IMG/VR virus record: IMGVR_UViG_3300037606_000137
Span: 32,001-96,000 of that record
Strand: one strand, 5' to 3'
DNA from: a virus
Length of the DNA: 64,000 nt
Part shown: positions 12,778-35,762 of the stretch, piece after piece
Position numbering within the stretch: the stretch's first letter is position 1
How the letters are laid out: the number at the start of each line of letters is the position of its first letter
Program-made: the position numbers and the translations under genes
Notes under the pieces: model-generated
What the model saw: the letters and a program-made list of their open reading frames with translations, nothing else
The model's database searches: none
What the model was told of the DNA's origin: nothing

Positions 12778-14685
12778 TTAATATCCAGCTTTTTTTAATG
12801 ATAAATTTAATTCATCAAGTTCAGTATTCCAAATTTCTTCGGGTGTTTTTAATTTATATAATTTTATTTCTAATTTCATATCTTTTGCTTGTTTTCTATA
12901 TTCATCATATTTTTCTTTTGATAAATGATATACTGGAATATTTAATAAATAATCATAATTATCATTATATTTATCAAATTCCATATCTTCTAAATTTTTA
13001 ATAATATCAGATTTAGATTTATTATTTATTAAAACAGCTCCATCAATTACGGCTTTAATAAAACATACAAGATTAAAATATCTAATGTATTGTTTTTCTA
13101 AAATTTTAATATATGATTCTTTACGTTTTATATAATATTGCAATCTTAAATCAAACCAAGTATTTAATAATTCTTCAGCAGTATTCCATTTAACAATTTT
13201 ATTATCTAAAAATGTATTCATATTATTAATAGATATATTTGCAGTTAATTTTAATAATGATTCTAAGTTATTAATTTTTGTTCCAGCATTTAATGTAATT
13301 GTTATATGTACTAATTCATCTGTAGAATTATCTAAATATGTTTTAATAATTTTATCATCACATAATTTATCTAAAATTGAAATATATTTATCTGTTGATA
13401 CATCTACCGGTAATTCTGTTATTAAAACTTGTAATTTATTTTTAGATAAAGTAAAAATACCTTTTGAAATATATGTATTTCTTTCTGCGTCCCAATCTAA
13501 ATCACCATTCCATTTATTATATGATGGATTAATTGCATATTTAATATCAGGTCGTGTTAATTTTTTTTGTATAACTTGAATCAATGCCATTGGATCATAT
13601 TTAGGTACGTCTGTAGACCAACCTGTACCAATTCCAGATGTACCATTTACTAAAAGTGTAGGTATAATAGGTAAAAAATATTCAGGTTCTATACGATCAA
13701 CATCTTCATATAAATAATTTAAAATTTGTTCATCTTCTTTTCTAAAAATTAAACTGGTAATTGGATTTAAATATGTGTAAATATATCTAGGACTTGCTGC
13801 AGATTTTGGATCACGTCTTGATCCAAAATTACCTTTTGGTATAAACATCGAAATATTGTTACTGAATACAAAATCCTGTGCCATATTAATAATAGTTCCA
13901 TACATGTTAGATTCGCCATGAGCATAATGTGTTTGTTCTGCAACATAAGCACCAAATTGTGCAACTTTAGTTTCTGCTTTTAAATTACGTTTAAAAGCAC
14001 CAAACATGATTTTTCTTTGAGACGGTTTGAACCCGTCAATTAAATGTGGTATAGATATAATATTATCATAATTACTAAATTGAATAAATTCAGTATCAAT
14101 AAAATCATTTATATTGTTTGGTTTTCCAAATTTATCTGGTAAAATTTCACCTTTATAATTTGTCATCCATTCTTTACGTTCATTAGCTCTTGTTTTATTA
14201 AAAACCAAATCAATTTTATCACTATCACGTTTATCGATAAATTTAAATTTAATTAAATGTTTATCAATATTTTTAAACATTTCTTTAATTTCAGGTGCTG
14301 TAATTGTACCTAAACCTTTATAATATTTTATAGTAAACCCATTTAATTTATCATTAACTTTATCTCTTTTATATTTATCAATATCGTAATACTCTTTAAT
14401 AACTTTACCTTTTGTAGCTTTTACAATAGGTGTTATAAATTCATAACAAAAACCTAATTCTAACAATTCAGGCCACATTTTATGTATAAAATTAATTAAT
14501 AAACCTTTAATTGAAATACCAAAACAATTATGTGTTAACATATATCCAAGTTCATGTTTAATATGAAATGTGTGATCATTTTCAATAGTTAAATCTATGC
14601 ATTTTGTTTCTTTGTTTATGTGTGAAATACTGTCTATTTTATGTATTTCATATTGACTCAAATCTATATTTATTTTTTCTATCAT
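12778..14685 (-). CDS. Type II topoisomerase C-terminal half (end of TOPRIM plus GyrA/ParC-like domain) with a C-intein at its N-terminus
   Basis: IDLTIENDHTF...LTHN|C intein blocks F/G; YYKGLGT; DGFKPSQRK; YAHGE; AASPRYI catalytic Tyr. Confidence 0.92.
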   Translation of the reverse strand: MIEKINIDLSQYEIHKIDSISHINKETKCIDLTIENDHTFHIKHELGYMLTHNCFGISIKGLLINFIHKMWPELLELGFCYEFITPIVKATKGKVIKEYYDIDKYKRDKVNDKLNGFTIKYYKGLGTITAPEIKEMFKNIDKHLIKFKFIDKRDSDKIDLVFNKTRANERKEWMTNYKGEILPDKFGKPNNINDFIDTEFIQFSNYDNIISIPHLIDGFKPSQRKIMFGAFKRNLKAETKVAQFGAYVAEQTHYAHGESNMYGTIINMAQDFVFSNNISMFIPKGNFGSRRDPKSAASPRYIYTYLNPITSLIFRKEDEQILNYLYEDVDRIEPEYFLPIIPTLLVNGTSGIGTGWSTDVPKYDPMALIQVIQKKLTRPDIKYAINPSYNKWNGDLDWDAERNTYISKGIFTLSKNKLQVLITELPVDVSTDKYISILDKLCDDKIIKTYLDNSTDELVHITITLNAGTKINNLESLLKLTANISINNMNTFLDNKIVKWNTAEELLNTWFDLRLQYYIKRKESYIKILEKQYIRYFNLVCFIKAVIDGAVLINNKSKSDIIKNLEDMEFDKYNDNYDYLLNIPVYHLSKEKYDEYRKQAKDMKLEIKLYKLKTPEEIWNTELDELNLSLKKAGY

Positions 14686-15719
14686 AAGTATATTATGTTT
14701 TTAATTATTTTTAATTGTTTTATTATGTCTATTAATATTTTTTCTTCTGGTACATTGTTTTCCCATAAAATAATAAGTGGTCCATTTGTTGATTCTATAA
14801 TTTGTTTATTTCTAATTTCATCATCTTTCCAAATTTCGTATGCATATTTCTTTTTTAATTTATGATAATAGTCTTTTTTGTAATTTCTTGGGTCACAGTG
14901 CCAAAATTGCCCAAAAAATTCTAAACATATATTATAATCTACTAAATAAAAATCTACAATTTTTGGTCTTATTTTGTTTAAAATATGAATTGGATATTCT
15001 TCGATATATTTAATATTGTATAATTCTAATGTTTGTTTAATTTTTTGTGATACTTTACTTATTTTTGTTCCAGTTGTAACTTTTATTAATTTTGCTAAAT
15101 ATGATTCATATTTAGTTTTACCTATATCATATCCAAATTTATTTATATACCAATCTAAAGTATTAGATTTTCCTATTTTATCACATCTCTCTTTATATTT
15201 TATTGGTCCGTCAATTTCACCATATCTTATAATATAACCAGCTAAATTTGTACGCTGTGATATTGGTACATTATCACCAGATTTATTTCTGTTTGGTAAT
15301 ACTATATATTGTGCATCTTCTAATGTTATTTTTTTTATTATTGATAAATATTTTGGATTAGAACCAATGTGTTCATATGTTTTTTTATCATATGATGTAC
15401 CCAATATTTTTAAACTTAAATCATTTTTACATTCAATACTATTACAAAAAAAACCACATTTATAGTATCTAGTAAATGTATAATTTTCATTATCTAATCT
15501 ATAAATAAAAAAAGAGTTTTTATTACAATTTCCACATTTTTCTATAGGTTTATCCTCAACATAATATCTTTTAATGTAATCATCAAATATTATATTATGT
15601 TTTCTTTTAACATGACTAATTAAACCACTATTATTATTTACTATTTTATTACATATTTTACAAGTCATACACATACCAAATTGTTTATATTTATATATTA
15701 ATTTTGGTATGTGTATCAA
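14682..15719 (-). CDS. Free-standing endonuclease (Zn fingers plus Vsr/DUF559-like domain); likely start near 15675
   Basis: CKIC..H...H; VDFY..LEFFGQFWH..D..R; IILWE. Confidence 0.75.
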   Translation of the reverse strand: MIHIPKLIYKYKQFGMCMTCKICNKIVNNNSGLISHVKRKHNIIFDDYIKRYYVEDKPIEKCGNCNKNSFFIYRLDNENYTFTRYYKCGFFCNSIECKNDLSLKILGTSYDKKTYEHIGSNPKYLSIIKKITLEDAQYIVLPNRNKSGDNVPISQRTNLAGYIIRYGEIDGPIKYKERCDKIGKSNTLDWYINKFGYDIGKTKYESYLAKLIKVTTGTKISKVSQKIKQTLELYNIKYIEEYPIHILNKIRPKIVDFYLVDYNICLEFFGQFWHCDPRNYKKDYYHKLKKKYAYEIWKDDEIRNKQIIESTNGPLIILWENNVPEEKILIDIIKQLKIIKNIIYL

Positions 15720-17497
15720 TTTCTTTTTATTAATACTAAATCTGTGTATAGCAATGATTCTGCATAAATTACTATAGTTTCACCATTGCGTAATACAATT
15801 AATTTGTGTTGTTTACTACATAAATATTCAGTGCCTGAAACCATAAATGACACCATATCATTTTTTATAGATGCAATTATATTTATAACTTTTTTATATT
15901 CTCCGGTGTGTGTTAATACATAATCATCATATGTAATATTTTTTATTTTCTTTTCGCCATCTTTTGTTAAAACTATAGTATTTTCTTCTAAACAGTCAGC
16001 ATCAGTAAAAAATACAATTTTACCATATCTTAATTCGTTTATATCTGTATATTTTTTACCCGGTACTAATCCAATAATTTTAATAATATTTGCTATTTCA
16101 TCATTATTAATTATTTTAGATACCGGTACATCTCTTACATTTAATGGTCTTCCTTTTATTGGAAAAACACCCCAATAATCTCTACCAACAACACTCAACC
16201 CTGTTATAACTGTTCCTTTTGCACTATCACCTTCTGTAATACAAAGTGTTGATTTATAACCACTTGTAGTTCCAGCTTTATGTGCATCAACTAATTTTTC
16301 TACACGAATTGTTTTACCAGCAGATTTTTTATTCATTTTATTCAATGCTGCTTGTTCTTTCATTAAAACCCATTCTAAAATAGATTCTATGATTTCAGAT
16401 TTCATTAATAATTTATATAATTTATCAGATAAATCAACATCATCTATAATTTTAGATATTAAATTTTCTTTTGTTTGTGCATCAAATTTAGGATTAGCTA
16501 TTTTACATATTAAAAACATGTGAAATTTATTTTTAATATCGTTTGGTTTAATATTAATACCTTTTCTACCTTTAGTTAAATCTGTTATTAATCTTTTAAT
16601 AACTTTACTCATTATAAAATCAACATGTGTTCCACCTTGCCATGTAGTATTACCGTTTATAATAGAACAGTGTTCAAATGTGTCTGTACTTGATTGTGTT
16701 AAACCAATATTCCATTTATCATTAATTTCTTCTTTAAATAATTCTGCATTTGGTTCTATATGTAATGACATCCAATCTGAAATATTATTAATTTTAATTA
16801 ATTCATCATTAAAATAAACTTTAATATTTGGATTGTATGCAGCAATATCATATGCTCTTTTAATACATAATTTCATTGTATCATTACTATAATCAGCTAT
16901 TGGTAGTCTTGTAATATCTGTATTATATGTTACACATGTATATGATTTTTTACATGGTTTTATAACGGGTTTTGTTTTATTTCTTGCATTATTTGATAAT
17001 TCTTGATAATAAGATTTAGATCCATCACCACAATCAATAATAAATTTTGATGAAAATAATGCAACACAACCAGAACCAACACCATTTCTACCAGCACCAT
17101 AACGTTCTTCGGTATCATTGTAATTCGACCCAGAATTTAAACGCCCTAAAACCATTTCAGGAACATACATATTATGTTCTTTATGAATTGTAACTGGAAT
17201 ACCTTCACCATCATTCCATACTTTAATAGTCCAATCGCTTTCTATATTAATTTTAATGGTTGTAACTTTTTTCCCCCTTTGTGCATGATCTGACGCATTT
17301 GTTATAATTTCATCATATAATTTCAAAAATCCGGGTATATATGTTAATGATTGTTTTCGAATATGATTATCTTCAAAACACCACATATCTTTAGTTTGTT
17401 CTTCAATAGAACCAATCATTGTATCAGGTCTAAGTAAAATTTGTTCTTCTTGACTTAATAATTTATATTCTTCTTCAACATTTATTTTTTTTACCAT
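15716..17497 (-). CDS. Type II topoisomerase N-terminal half (GHKL ATPase plus TOPRIM) ending in an N-intein
   Basis: EIITNASD, GRNGVG, EGDSA, PIKGRPLNV, TDAD|CLEENT..HKL intein blocks A/B. Confidence 0.92.
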   Translation of the reverse strand: MVKKINVEEEYKLLSQEEQILLRPDTMIGSIEEQTKDMWCFEDNHIRKQSLTYIPGFLKLYDEIITNASDHAQRGKKVTTIKINIESDWTIKVWNDGEGIPVTIHKEHNMYVPEMVLGRLNSGSNYNDTEERYGAGRNGVGSGCVALFSSKFIIDCGDGSKSYYQELSNNARNKTKPVIKPCKKSYTCVTYNTDITRLPIADYSNDTMKLCIKRAYDIAAYNPNIKVYFNDELIKINNISDWMSLHIEPNAELFKEEINDKWNIGLTQSSTDTFEHCSIINGNTTWQGGTHVDFIMSKVIKRLITDLTKGRKGINIKPNDIKNKFHMFLICKIANPKFDAQTKENLISKIIDDVDLSDKLYKLLMKSEIIESILEWVLMKEQAALNKMNKKSAGKTIRVEKLVDAHKAGTTSGYKSTLCITEGDSAKGTVITGLSVVGRDYWGVFPIKGRPLNVRDVPVSKIINNDEIANIIKIIGLVPGKKYTDINELRYGKIVFFTDADCLEENTIVLTKDGEKKIKNITYDDYVLTHTGEYKKVINIIASIKNDMVSFMVSGTEYLCSKQHKLIVLRNGETIVIYAESLLYTDLVLIKRN

Positions 17498-32477: not shown

Positions 32478-32544
32478 ACTTAATTGTTTTTATTCTGTAT
32501 AATAATTCTAAATAACAAAAATAAAAAGAATTAAAATTATTATT

Positions 32545-32715
32545 ATGGACAAGAATCAAATTTTTACAGAATTAGAAACATTATGGGAAGCATTTAAAGC
32601 AGAACATGAATCAACAAAGAAAATTGCAGGTGGTAGAGCTAGAAAAGCAATTGGTGAAATGAAAAAATTAGTTACACCTTACCGTCAAGCATCTGTTGAA
32701 GCAGGAAAATTATAA
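32545..32715 (+). CDS. Histone H1-like (Hc1-family) small protein, 56 aa, absent from the ORF track
   Basis: KKIAGGRARKAIGEMKKLVTPYRQASVE resembles the Bacteroidota Hc1-like motif. Confidence 0.7.
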   Translation: MDKNQIFTELETLWEAFKAEHESTKKIAGGRARKAIGEMKKLVTPYRQASVEAGKL

Positions 32716-32811
32716 AAAATAAATAAAAATTTTTATATATCAAAATAAATTCTTATATTTGTTTTGTAAAAGTAAAAAGGGAAGAAAAAAAATTAATATA
32801 TACAATTAAGA

Positions 32812-32904
32812 ATGAAAAATTTATCAAACATATTAGTGGATCGTTATTATGATCGTGAACCGGAGAGATTACTTGGGACTAACAATGTTATGTGTAAATT
32901 TTAA
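32812..32904 (+). CDS. Putative attenuator leader peptide MKNLSNILVDRYYDREPERLLGTNNVMCKF
   Basis: Lies between promoter motifs (32754-32761, 32794-32802) and the terminator; contains GGGACT complementary to the terminator 5' arm. Confidence 0.65.
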   Translation: MKNLSNILVDRYYDREPERLLGTNNVMCKF

Positions 32905-32941
32905 TTATTAAAAAGATATTAAATTTTTAAACAAATAACTG

Positions 32942-32971
32942 AAAAGTCCCTTAGCAATAAGGGACTTTTTT
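32942..32971 (+). terminator. Intrinsic terminator (attenuator) 14 nt before tRNA-Glu
   Basis: AAAAGTCCCTTA-GCAA-TAAGGGACTTTTTT. Confidence 0.85.
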
Positions 32972-32985
32972 ATTTTAAATCATAT

Positions 32986-33057
32986 GCTCCTATCGTCTAA
33001 CGGTCAGGACTCTACCTTTTCAAGGTAGCAATGAGAGTTCGATTCTCTCTGGGAGTA
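32986..33057 (+). tRNA. tRNA-Glu(TTC)
   Basis: Cloverleaf; CTACC-TTTTCAA-GGTAG. Confidence 0.92.
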
Positions 33058-33139
33058 CAAAAAATAAATTGTAGTGTACAATAGGTGAAATTTGTATATG
33101 AATGGTAAGACAGCTCGAGACTGTATTTATTTTTTTTAA

Positions 33140-33219
33140 CTAGATGCTTGAGCAGTTGGTTGAACTCGCCTGTTTTGGGAACAGGAGCATTTGCGTAGGT
33201 TCGAATCCTACCATCTAGA
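33140..33219 (+). tRNA. tRNA-Pro(TGG)
   Basis: CTAGATG/CATCTAG acceptor; CCTGT-TTTGGGA-ACAGG. Confidence 0.88.
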
Positions 33220-33415
33220 CATAAATTATTGATAACAAACAAGTTACAATAAAAAATATATTTACTAGTAATGTTTAGTAAATTAAAGATAATAGTTGGA
33301 TAATGAAAATATGAGCTGTAACTTGTATAATAGTAATTATAAGCTAGAATATAGAAATGATATAATATTTAAGTATTATTACAGTAAGAAAGAATTAAAT
33401 TGAATTGAAGTATTT

Positions 33416-33490
33416 TTTATGTGTGGTGTAATTGGATAGGCACGCTTGCGTTGAGTGAGTAGATTATTGGTTCGAATCCAATACATGAAA
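33416..33490 (+). ncRNA. tRNA-like RNA with 5-nt anticodon loop
   Basis: GTGT..GCAC D arm, CTTGC-GTTGA-GTGAG, ATTGG-TTCGAAT-CCAAT. Confidence 0.6.
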
Positions 33491-33500
33491 CAAAAAATAA

Positions 33501-33571
33501 GGTCCATTGGTGAAATGGTATCATGACTCACTGTCTATGAGTTGTCGTCGGATCGTAACCGGCATGGACCG
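33501..33571 (+). tRNA. tRNA-Asp(GTC), atypical T loop
   Basis: ACTCA-CTGTCTA-TGAGT; G73. Confidence 0.85.
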
Positions 33572-33597
33572 CTAAAGAAACAAAAATAATAAAATAA

Positions 33598-33670
33598 GGT
33601 CCTGTAGCACAATTGGTAGTGTAACTTGTTGTCTGCGAGATGGTTGACGGTTCGAATCCGTTCAGGACCG
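33598..33670 (+). tRNA. tRNA-Asp(GTC), second copy
   Basis: GGTCCTG/CAGGACC-G; loop TTGTCTG. Confidence 0.8.
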
Positions 33671-33736
33671 CAATAAACTGAGTTAGTGTACTACAAGTTC
33701 GAAACTTGTGATCTTGACAAAAAAAAATTAAAAAAG

Positions 33737-33826
33737 ATGAAAAAAATAATAGTAAATAAAAATGTAATGATAAGTGTAAGAAATATTTCTTATTCATATT
33801 ATTATAACTTATTGAAATCTCAATGA
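33737..33826 (+). CDS. Putative Tyr-rich attenuator leader peptide MKKIIVNKNVMISVRNISYSYYYNLLKSQ
   Basis: Four TAT codons at 33791-33805; the stop overlaps an antiterminator segment. Confidence 0.7.
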   Translation: MKKIIVNKNVMISVRNISYSYYYNLLKSQ

Positions 33827-33853
33827 GACTGAAATTGTATTTTAACAAATTTT

Positions 33854-33886
33854 AAGTCCTATTGAGAAATCAGTAGGACTTTTTTT
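33854..33886 (+). terminator. Intrinsic terminator (attenuator) immediately before tRNA-Tyr
   Basis: AAGTCCTATTGA-GAAA-TCAGTAGGACTTTTTTT. Confidence 0.85.
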
Positions 33887-33890
33887 ATAA

Positions 33891-34565
33891 CCGACAGTAT
33901 GCAAGTGGTTAAAGCAGGGGGATTGTAAATCCTGTTACAGTCAATTCGAATTTAATATATAAAGATAAAAAACTATATATGTGTGATTTGAAAAAATGTG
34001 AAAATTGTGATAACGATCATAATGGTGATTATGGAAGTGGAAGATTCTGTTCGAATAAATGTGCTAGAGGATTCTCAACCAAAAATAAACGAAAAGAAAT
34101 AAATAAAAAAGTAAGTAATACATTACAGTTAAAATTAAATAATGGATTAACAACACAACAAGTAATACAAAAAAAATATGCAGCTAAACACGCTTCTTAT
34201 ATTAGAGAAACTGAAATAACTACATTATATGATTTAAGTACACGTACAATAAGTAAAATATTAAAAAGATTAAAATTACCATGTTCATTATGTAAATGGT
34301 ATGTTGAAGATGTTGTTGGTGATTTACATCATATAATAGAAAGAAAAAATGGTGGTTCAAACAATCATGATAATTTAACATATGTATGTCCTAATTGTCA
34401 TAGATTAATTCATTCTAATAAAATAGATAATAGTAAAATAATAAATCTTAAAGATTATATTGGTGACGAATGGAAAAAATATTATTATGTAATCAATAAA
34501 AAATTAATAAACAAATAATTTGTTCTCTTCGGAGTTCGTAAGTTCAAATCTTACCTGTCGGACCA
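33891..34565 (+). tRNA. tRNA-Tyr(GTA) split by an insertion (5' part 33891-33936, 3' part 34525-34565 with encoded CCA)
   Basis: CCGACAG pairs with CTGTCGG-ACCA; loop TTGTAAA; CTC-TTCG-GAG variable arm; GTAAG-TTCAAAT-CTTAC. Confidence 0.85.
33979..34518 (+). CDS. HNH endonuclease inserted in tRNA-Tyr
   Basis: C..C..GSGRFCSNKCA; DLHHII....GGSN...NLTYVCPNCHRLIH. Confidence 0.88.
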   Translation: MCDLKKCENCDNDHNGDYGSGRFCSNKCARGFSTKNKRKEINKKVSNTLQLKLNNGLTTQQVIQKKYAAKHASYIRETEITTLYDLSTRTISKILKRLKLPCSLCKWYVEDVVGDLHHIIERKNGGSNNHDNLTYVCPNCHRLIHSNKIDNSKIINLKDYIGDEWKKYYYVINKKLINK

Positions 34566-34731
34566 CAACAATTTTAAGTTGTACTTCTAATTTTATTAAA
34601 TTAAAACATAAATATGTTGATGTATTTTTGTTTTAATTTTTTTGTTTATATAATTGTATTCATAACAATTTAAACAAAGTTAAACAATTCATATATAATA
34701 CTATAGAAAATATAGTAAATATAGTAAAGCT

Positions 34732-35265
34732 ATGGGAACAATAAAAGATTATATACAAGAAAGAATAACATTAAATCATTTACCTTTAAATATTAATGAA
34801 TGTTTAGCTGTTATAGAAACATATGAAACAATATATTCTAATGTTTCAGAGAAAGAACGTTTTTTTTTATTTATCAAAAATAAAGTTGGAGAAATACTAA
34901 CAAATATTGATGAAGATTTGTCTGAAATTTTAGGATGGTTACATGTACATAAAAGTAAACAAGATATAGTTTATTTTTTATTTGAAACCGAAGAAGATTA
35001 TTATAATTGGTTAAGTGTTCGTAAAGATTTATATTTACAATTAAATGAAGATTACACAAGATTATTAAATTTTTTAGAATTATCGACTATGGATTTCATT
35101 TCTGATATAACTACTAATTGTAATTATATCTTAGAATTAAAAAATAAAAAAACAGATTTTAAAAAAGAAGGATATGGTGTTGATGTTGAATCAACAATAT
35201 CATTCATTAAATACTTAGGTGCATCATTTAAAAAAGGATATAACTTTAAACCAACAAAAATATGA
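34732..35265 (+). CDS. Hypothetical protein
   Basis: ORF with a TAAAC-N18-TATAAT promoter. Confidence 0.6.
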   Translation: MGTIKDYIQERITLNHLPLNINECLAVIETYETIYSNVSEKERFFLFIKNKVGEILTNIDEDLSEILGWLHVHKSKQDIVYFLFETEEDYYNWLSVRKDLYLQLNEDYTRLLNFLELSTMDFISDITTNCNYILELKNKKTDFKKEGYGVDVESTISFIKYLGASFKKGYNFKPTKI

Positions 35266-35762
35266 AAATAAAATTTTTGTTTTTCAATACTTTTGATAGT
35301 ACCGAACCATGTGATATTAAAATACTTTCTGGTAATAGTTTAAAAGAAATACTTTCAGATAATTATACTATTAATGATACACATTATAACGATTATAATG
35401 ATATAGAAAAAACATTATTAAATGGTGGTAAAGTTGTACTTGATGAATCATCTGATAAATCAGATGATCCACAATTTTGGCATGAAGACGATTGGATTAT
35501 AAAAATAGAAATAATAGAAATATGAATACAATTAAAATAAGACAATACACACCACCACAATTATCAGTTTTTGATTTCAATGATCAATTTATTGGATTTA
35601 TTAACCATTATGAAGAATTTAAATCGTTACAAAATGATATTTTTAATAATGCTATTACTGGTTATTACGCTACTTATGGTGAACATAAAATAATTTTTAC
35701 AGAATTTGGTTATGTTGGTATAGATAATATTATATTTTTAAAATCACTTTATAATATAAAAC

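Follow-up and report, generated by a model that had tools for sequence, protein, structure and literature searches.

A single tRNA-Tyr gene with the anticodon GTA lies in the window, the whole stretch of 64,000 nucleotides that we analysed (bases 32001-96000 of one linear 110,380-bp IMG/VR virus record), and it is divided into two parts by an insert whose sole ORF encodes a protein with an HNH domain (Table 1). The 5' part comprises the acceptor strand CCGACAG, a D arm with a stem of 3 bp and an 11-nt loop of the class II type (AAGTGGTTAAA), and the anticodon arm GGGGA-TTGTAAA-TCCT(G). The 3' part continues with the variable hairpin CTC-TTCG-GAG, the spacer TTC, the T arm GTAAG-TTCAAAT-CTTAC, the acceptor strand CTGTCGG, A73 and an encoded CCA. 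All canonical features are kept in the two halves, including U8, A14, G18G19, U33, G53-C61, the T loop and an acceptor stem (CCGACAG/CTGTCGG) that pairs perfectly over all 7 bp. The original prediction had described two intact tRNA parts with a perfect 7-bp acceptor, a TTCG variable hairpin and an encoded CCA, and each of these elements was read in the sequence.

Table 1. Features of the split tRNA-Tyr locus and its surroundings (window coordinates).
Feature	Position	Strand	Basis or remark
Terminator-like hairpin (12 bp, 4 G-C pairs) with T-run	33854-33887	+	ends 3 nt before tRNA-Tyr
tRNA-Tyr(GTA), 5' part, CCGACAG...CCTGTT	33891-33936	+	sequence read, ARAGORN, fold, intact alleles
8-bp inverted repeat GATTGTAA/TTACAGTC across the 5' junction	33921-33942	+	junction scan, leader comparison
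Insert, 588 nt in the register of the original prediction	33937-34524	+	sequence read
Cassette leader, 42 nt, promoter-like	33937-33978	+	homology to intergenic cassette leaders
HNH ORF, 179 aa	33979-34518	+	PF01844, homologues, predicted structure, composition
Trailer TTTGTT, 6 nt	34519-34524	+	final 4 nt repeat the TGTT of 33933-33936
tRNA-Tyr, 3' part, CTCTTCGGAG...CTGTCGGACCA	34525-34565	+	sequence read, fold, intact alleles

ARAGORN in intron mode calls tRNA-Tyr(gta) across exactly 33891-34565, and the joined halves fold into a class II cloverleaf (-22.7 kcal/mol). The D arm and the long variable arm are of the bacterial class II tRNA-Tyr type, with the same layout as in the tRNA-Tyr of the megaphage Lak-B3, and the GC content of the halves is 45%, versus 23% for the genome. 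The gene had been thought to be split at the variable arm; the break does border this arm, but the site is the junction between anticodon stem and variable arm (positions 42-45) and not the hairpin itself. The intron model that ARAGORN proposes, i(39,594), and the C1:G72 pair would also be suggestive of a eukaryal- or archaeal-type tRNA-Tyr with a 37/38 intron. We rejected this assignment. A 37/38 join produces a class I tRNA of weaker folding energy (-19.2 versus -22.7 kcal/mol), ignores the native 3' strand of the anticodon stem and is contradicted by intact class II homologues; other tRNAs of the phage also begin with a base other than G.

The record has a GC content of 23.5% and an estimated completeness of about 28% (CheckV). 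It encodes a T4-type split topoisomerase II, NAMPT together with a CTP_transf_like (cytidylyltransferase-like) protein, an NAD-dependent ligase and ribonucleotide reductase. The top phage match of the topoisomerase II belongs to a 735-kb uncultured phage, which indicates that the record is part of the genome of a huge phage with a very high AT content. There are two tRNA clusters on the record, with several odd tRNAs, and the split gene is the only tRNA-Tyr that ARAGORN detects in the 110 kb. Relatives identified through the topoisomerase II (72% amino acid identity) are short fragments with no tRNA on any of them, the ORF downstream of the split locus has no relatives in IMG/VR, and no exact match was found to 32 nt of the 5' half of the tRNA-Tyr. 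None of these searches yielded a close relative of the phage in which the locus is present.

The ORF fills nearly the whole insert, as had been claimed, leaving 42 nt before and 6 nt after it. Its product is assigned to the HNH proteins by PF01844 (E=2e-7) and consists of an N-terminal FCS-type zinc finger, a helical, HTH-like middle region and a C-terminal HNH domain (DLHHI...N...CPNCHRLIH). Residues D115, H117, H118, N132, C137-C140, H141 and H145 are conserved across 29 homologues, and the protein keeps every Cys, His and Asn that is invariant in the family. We found 542 homologues, about 60 of them with 55-73% identity, and the nearest (P0002 and P0003) are 72-73% identical. Profile searches match McrA, the maturase En domain and the HNH of IscB, and the best Foldseek match of the predicted model (mean pLDDT 82) is McrA (6ghc). 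The reading frame is intact, with a GC3 of 8.3% that equals the level of the resident genes. Judged by its sequence, the protein is a predicted homing endonuclease of a zinc-finger/HNH family with an intact catalytic motif. A relationship with PtuB of Septu, which cleaves tRNA-Tyr, was considered and rejected, as PADLOC gives only generic McrA and homing-endonuclease models.

Uninterrupted alleles, a search for which had been proposed with the original prediction, were found in IMG/VR with the T-arm sequence as query. Three AT-rich phage contigs (L187, L189 and L190) carry an uninterrupted tRNA-Tyr in which the D arm, the T arm and the ACCA end are identical to those of the split gene. The joined halves are identical to the alleles of L187 and L189 at 67/85 positions (79%) and to that of L190 at 62/84 positions. 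The presence of such alleles in other phage contigs establishes, beyond chance, that the two halves represent one gene. No HNH gene is located near the intact tRNA-Tyr of any of the three contigs. Alleles with and without the HNH gene at the same site exist, across lineages, and the three contigs are not close relatives of this phage.

The intact alleles also bear on where exactly the halves should be joined. In every one of them positions 27 and 43 are paired, and one base separates the anticodon stem from the variable stem. A gap-free alignment with all intact alleles requires that 33933, as the final base of the 5' exon, is joined to 34523, where the 3' part then begins. This join defines a 589-nt insert that starts and ends with G, and yields a tRNA with a G27:U43 pair, a 1-nt spacer and a folding energy of -22.3 kcal/mol. 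It also places a U at position -1 and a G as the final base of the insert, as group I splicing requires, a combination that none of the registers of the TGTT model provides. The joined gene, or empty site, would read ...AAATCCTTTCTCTTCGG... or ...AAATCCTGTTCTCTTCGG....

The original prediction had interpreted the TGTT at the two borders of the insert (33933-36 and 34521-24) as a duplication. The exact repeat is there, but because the intact alleles fit the join of 33933 to 34523, it is not necessarily a target-site duplication. If it were a true 4-bp duplication, left by a transposon-like or staggered-cut insertion, the original tRNA would have read ...TCCTGTTCTC... and the empty-site allele would be expected to read ...ATCCTTTCTC...; the gene would be knocked out all the same, by a different chemistry. 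The corresponding register folds marginally better (-22.7 versus -22.3 kcal/mol). However, it exceeds every intact allele by one base and contains a G27xG43 mismatch, the insert has neither a transposase (the HNH gene is its sole ORF) nor terminal inverted repeats, and a 4-nt repeat is weak evidence in a sequence of 77% AT. We therefore regard a genuine TGTT duplication as unlikely.

Group I introns occur in the anticodon loops of bacterial and phage tRNAs, and some of them carry homing endonucleases. The locus resembles such introns in that the coding sequence of a nuclease splits a tRNA gene from whose halves a normal tRNA can be rebuilt; one register also offers U(-1) and a terminal G. It differs from them in the lack of a ribozyme core, in the mere 48 nt of non-coding sequence in the insert, and in the site of insertion, which follows the 3' strand of the anticodon stem (positions 42-45) and is outside the anticodon loop. 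An Rfam search of 3 kb (32500-35500) detected neither a group I nor a group II intron at E ≤ 10; as a control, RF00028 scores 49.2 bits on the 189-nt intron of a phage tRNA in one of the surveyed loci (L058). R- and S-like group I elements were not seen in the sequence of the insert either. The earlier argument that no ribozyme core could be accommodated outside the ORF is upheld by the missing Rfam match and the 48 non-coding nucleotides. The final 110 nt of the insert are AT-rich codons for a DYIGDxWKKYYY motif that is common to intergenic homologues. By junction scan and cofolding we found no bulge-helix-bulge of 3-4-3 geometry, and the ends of the insert form no long duplex and no acceptor-like or T-arm-like structure. 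EndA (PF01974), RtcB, Rnl1 and Rnl2 are absent from the record, which represents about 28% of the genome.

Two of the surveyed loci contain tRNA inserts of the group I type that are unlike the one in the window: the intron of L058, with its score of 49 bits, and a second HNH insert in L016, with R/S-like elements. The former interrupts a tRNA with the anticodon UCA in a phage tRNA cluster (L058 653-926, and also in L059), and its RF00028 score lies just below the gathering score. In the latter (L016 2616-3301, and also in L017, L097 and L098), a tRNA with the anticodon UUA, of the ochre-suppressor type, is split in the anticodon loop by 603 nt that include a different HNH ORF of 169 aa. R- and S-like group I elements (AGAGACTATA ... 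ATAGTCC), which Rfam does not detect, are located just past this ORF, and the sister contig L015 is devoid of the whole 603-nt insert.

We surveyed 160 loci that encode relatives of the HNH protein, with 132 distinct ORFs, almost all of which lie within tRNA clusters of phages. Typically, a tRNA is followed by 40-70 nt, the ORF, 0-15 nt and another tRNA, and the 42 nt and 6 nt of the window fall in these ranges. The same spacing, together with a homologous leader, indicates that the insert is a complete free-standing cassette of a known type and nothing more. Its closest relatives are tied specifically to tRNA-Tyr. Seven of the 10 full-length homologues with at least 50% identity are in direct contact with a tRNA-Tyr (ARAGORN), a species that accounts for 6.6% of all tRNAs in these loci. 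In Lak-B3 the HNH gene begins 5 nt past an intact tRNA-Tyr, and the HNH gene of the window shares 69% DNA identity across 220 nt with the Lak-B gene that abuts tRNA-Tyr. In three further loci (L010 1438-1517, L014 2502-2588 and L084 about 1580-1632), the HNH ORF does not carry its own stop codon; it reads into tRNA-Tyr, where the TAA within the anticodon loop CTGTAAA terminates it. C-terminal sequences of family members, GSVPAG among them, stem from translation of the tRNA gene.

A related arrangement is found in L031 (1158-1450, and also in L104), where a tRNA-Tyr has a 208-nt insert inside the anticodon, between GU and A. This insert has U(-1), a terminal G and the group-I-like motifs CAGACTATAGA and GAGATAGTC, with no Rfam match at E ≤ 0.01, and an HNH gene of the present family begins 62 nt downstream. 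The locus could exemplify an intron and a free-standing nuclease that collaborate.

The leader of the cassette contains a TTCGAAT element (33945-33951) followed by a TAATATATA box (33953-33961), and no Shine-Dalgarno sequence. TTCGAAT and ATATATA(AA) boxes are common to the leader in the window and to the leaders of intergenic cassettes, for example those of L021 (GTTCGATTTAATATATAAA) and L012 (GTTCGAATATATAC). The inverted repeat across the 5' junction is composed of the real anticodon loop and the first bases of the insert, and as RNA it would fold into a hairpin in competition with the anticodon stem. The repeat matches a leader motif, (A)CTGTAAA...TACA, which is present in 11 of 103 leaders versus 1% of background windows. 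The motif is positioned 45-70 nt upstream of the ATG, and 55 nt upstream in the window. Its first half equals the anticodon loop of tRNA-Tyr. In the other cassettes, we interpret the motif as what is left of the left half of the homing site, or as an imitation of it.

Strong terminator-like sites are enriched around the locus, with three in 2.1 kb versus 0.3 expected. One of them immediately precedes the 5' half (Table 1), and a second hairpin (32941-32970) is located directly upstream of tRNA-Glu at the head of the cluster. The original prediction had suggested that an attenuator would co-induce the nuclease. A terminator-like site does end 3 nt ahead of the 5' half, and the cassette brings its own promoter-like box, so that the two halves may be on different transcripts.

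Scanning for acceptor-complementary halves around all 132 ORFs revealed three other lineages in which an HNH gene of the family is located inside tRNA-Tyr, and in none of them can the tRNA be restored. In the first (L015, L016, L017, L097 and L098; 44% identity), the 5' part stops right after CTGTAAA and the 3' part consists only of the T arm, the acceptor strand and CCA, so that the 3' strand of the anticodon stem and the variable arm are missing; in addition, L017 and L098 carry U8G, and the acceptor complement is lost in L015. The same two elements are missing in the second lineage (L092 to L094; 60% identity, from a 388-kb phage), in which a tRNA-Tyr-like piece is nested behind the HNH ORF and an intact tRNA-Tyr follows (L092 1382-2203). 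In the third (L038 55-865; 36% identity), the outer tRNA-Tyr is without its D arm, and an intact tRNA-Tyr is located between the HNH gene and the outer 3' remnant. The acceptor strands of L016, L092 and L038 are still complementary at 7/7 positions, although other parts have been lost.

These sister genes would not produce a tRNA even if their parts were joined. The state inside the gene is therefore damaging and transient in this family, and often compensated by an adjacent intact copy. Decay of the halves in relatives, which the original prediction had named, along with the lack of a spliced or annealed product, as the sign of a simple knock-out, is seen in three sister lineages, across lineages and not in close relatives. 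Among the split tRNA-Tyr genes of the family, the window is the only clean case. The order in L092 and L038 is a nested one, in which the 5' part of a broken tRNA-Tyr is followed by the HNH gene, an inner tRNA-Tyr (or tRNA-Tyr-like piece) and the outer 3' part. Such an order would fit cassettes that, in some cases, move along with a tRNA-Tyr as a substitute for the broken one. A comparison of L016 with L017 was considered as a measure of selection on halves of the L016 type; the flanks are identical too, and nothing follows from it.

We consider it probable that the insert is the cassette of an HNH homing endonuclease specific to tRNA-Tyr, lodged in the very gene that it targets, and that the gene represents a recent, clean knock-out, whether the cassette entered by homologous homing or by a staggered-cut or microhomology event. 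The anatomy of the locus, the family membership, the linkage to tRNA-Tyr, the absence of known intron features and the decay in sister lineages were observed directly; where the protein cuts, by which route it homes and that the gene has lost its function are matters of deduction. Three explanations had been offered originally. Of these, an inactivating insertion is favoured by the homology to free-standing cassettes and by the broken sister genes; a protein-spliced intron and a two-piece tRNA are neither supported nor excluded by these data.

In the proposed mechanism, the HNH protein would recognise tRNA-Tyr genes that are free of the nuclease, in relatives infecting the same cell, by their conserved anticodon-loop region and would cut close to it, and repair of the break would copy the cassette into the tRNA-Tyr gene. 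The interrupted gene would most likely yield no tRNA-Tyr, because there is no ribozyme, and the cassette would persist by drive and not by benefit. Tyrosine decoding would then rest on the host, or on another copy of tRNA-Tyr in the remaining 72% of the genome. The flawless halves, in combination with a fully ameliorated HNH gene, imply either that the event is recent or that the halves are under selection; under the proposed mechanism, the insertion may be recent, or homing may keep refreshing the halves.

Some caution is in order. The flawless halves, the status of the gene as the only tRNA-Tyr in 110 kb, and the U(-1) and terminal G all count against a knock-out. Furthermore, phage-encoded tRNA-Tyr counters tRNA-cleaving defences such as Septu and retron-Eco7 and can be a valuable anti-defence gene (PMC13096335). 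We nevertheless judge it improbable that the interrupted tRNA-Tyr is still functional, either as a gene with a ribozyme-free intron at a non-canonical site, the halves of which are religated, or as an annealed two-piece tRNA. If it were, a route of tRNA maturation that is not known in bacteria or their viruses would be at work.

For religation, the insert would have to be removed at the RNA level without a recognisable ribozyme, which would give a functional tRNA-Tyr about 85 nt in length whose junction reads AAATCCT(G)TTCTCTTCGG. Host or phage nucleases could cut at the junctions and a ligase rejoin the ends, or a very degenerate self-splicing RNA could be hidden within the coding sequence. 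The perfection of the halves is consistent with such removal, as are the join that aligns without gaps to the intact alleles and offers U(-1) and a terminal G, and the fact that the fragment has no second tRNA-Tyr. 'Enigmatic' tRNA introns have also been described in Lak megaphages (PMC6784885). Against this stand the lack of a group I signal with only 48 non-coding nucleotides, and the use of the 3' 110 nt as codons for a motif that intergenic homologues share. The missing bulge-helix-bulge geometry and the absence of tRNA-like or long duplex structure at the insert ends also argue against removal, as does the absence of EndA, RtcB, Rnl1 and Rnl2, a weak point in a record that covers about 28% of the genome. 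Moreover, the sister insertions are destructive, and the terminator-like hairpin and the promoter-like box may place the halves on separate transcripts. Taken together, we hold removal of the insert at the RNA level to be quite unlikely.

The halves might also work unjoined. The HNH message could decay and leave an annealed two-piece tRNA, or the tRNA-like ends could have a role only in the processing or stability of the HNH mRNA as part of a tRNA operon. A 7-bp acceptor stem and D and T loops that are both intact could keep the pieces associated, and the break is at a position that we take to face away from the tRNA core. The acceptor strands of L016, L092 and L038, complementary at 7/7 positions despite the other losses, would fit such a role. 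Intervening sequences in bacterial 23S rRNA provide a parallel, in that they are excised without religation. However, the insert ends form no long duplex that would suit RNase III, and we know of no natural two-piece tRNA in bacteria or phages. U8G in L017 and L098 and the acceptor loss in L015 point to relaxed constraint, and most members of the family have no flanking halves at all. We consider a function of the unjoined halves very unlikely. Finally, although the record is a linear, 28%-complete fragment assembled from a metagenome, a chimeric contig that artificially joins tRNA-Tyr and the HNH gene can practically be dismissed, as a chimera would not set the ORF exactly between halves that rebuild a complete tRNA, the composition is uniform, and the same architecture recurs in independent contigs.

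The favoured reading, a homing endonuclease cassette that has invaded and disabled its own target, has its closest known counterpart in SegB of phages T4 and T6. This free-standing GIY-YIG homing endonuclease is encoded in a tRNA gene cluster, cuts within tRNA genes, is inherited preferentially with the neighbouring tRNAs and adjoins tRNA-Tyr in T6 (PMC2330249; PMC13096335). Homing endonucleases in phage tRNA clusters are therefore already known, and SegB shares with the present cassette the nature of a selfish nuclease gene in such a cluster that is linked to tRNA-Tyr. The differences are the fold, which is GIY-YIG in SegB versus a zinc-finger HNH here, and the location, since SegB lies between genes and interrupts no tRNA; the cleavage target of the HNH protein, moreover, is a deduced one.

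The tRNA region of phage T5 contains the site-specific HNH endonucleases F-TflI, F-TflII and F-TflIV. These, too, are HNH-type nucleases among phage tRNA genes, with the difference that they are intergenic. Lak megaphages, in which one of the 'enigmatic' introns is found in tRNA-Tyr (Devoto et al., 2019), are similar to the phage studied here as AT-rich huge phages with non-canonical inserts in tRNA genes; they differ in that the homologous HNH gene of Lak-B3 is outside an intact tRNA-Tyr. In a limited literature search we found no paper on the present zinc-finger/HNH family or on an intron-less nuclease gene lodged in a tRNA. The locus in the window and the approximately 130 related loci apparently constitute a large, undescribed zinc-finger/HNH family.

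Three states of this family have been caught: cleanly inside tRNA-Tyr, as in the window; within a decayed gene that has a replacement tRNA-Tyr beside it; and next to an intact tRNA-Tyr, with an anticodon-loop-like relic in the leader. The loci may serve as a model for how intron-less homing elements invade and break dispensable RNA genes and how the damage is compensated, and the target site that the homing model predicts lends itself to a simple test. In this family at least, the sister copies show that insertion of an HNH gene into a tRNA is destructive; if tRNA-Tyr is nonetheless made from the locus in the window, a new route of tRNA splicing or assembly would be revealed.

Several further observations concern tRNA genes and split genes. 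The T-arm search also returned the 3' part of a tRNA-Cys that follows unrelated sequence from the anticodon loop on (L182, about 1-110), and a tRNA-Leu(UAA) with a 463-nt insert (L185 1169-1706). On the minus strand of the window, the topoisomerase II (12778-17497) is spread across three adjacent ORFs, an ATPase/GyrB-like ORF, a middle ORF of 345 aa and an ORF with TOPRIM_C and the A subunit; the middle one may correspond to the Toprim part or to a further insert. Also on the minus strand, at 799-2830, there are several tRNA-like genes with good acceptor, D and T arms and abnormal anticodon regions, namely a 17-nt loop (914-997), a short arm (2116-2186) and no anticodon arm (2756-2817). These could be decayed genes, nuclease-evading variants or decoys. 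Many tRNAs of this phage start with a base other than G. Outside the window, the tRNA-His and tRNA-Asn genes of the same genome (C1 28508-28593 and 28732-28817) are 86 nt in length and have long variable arms.
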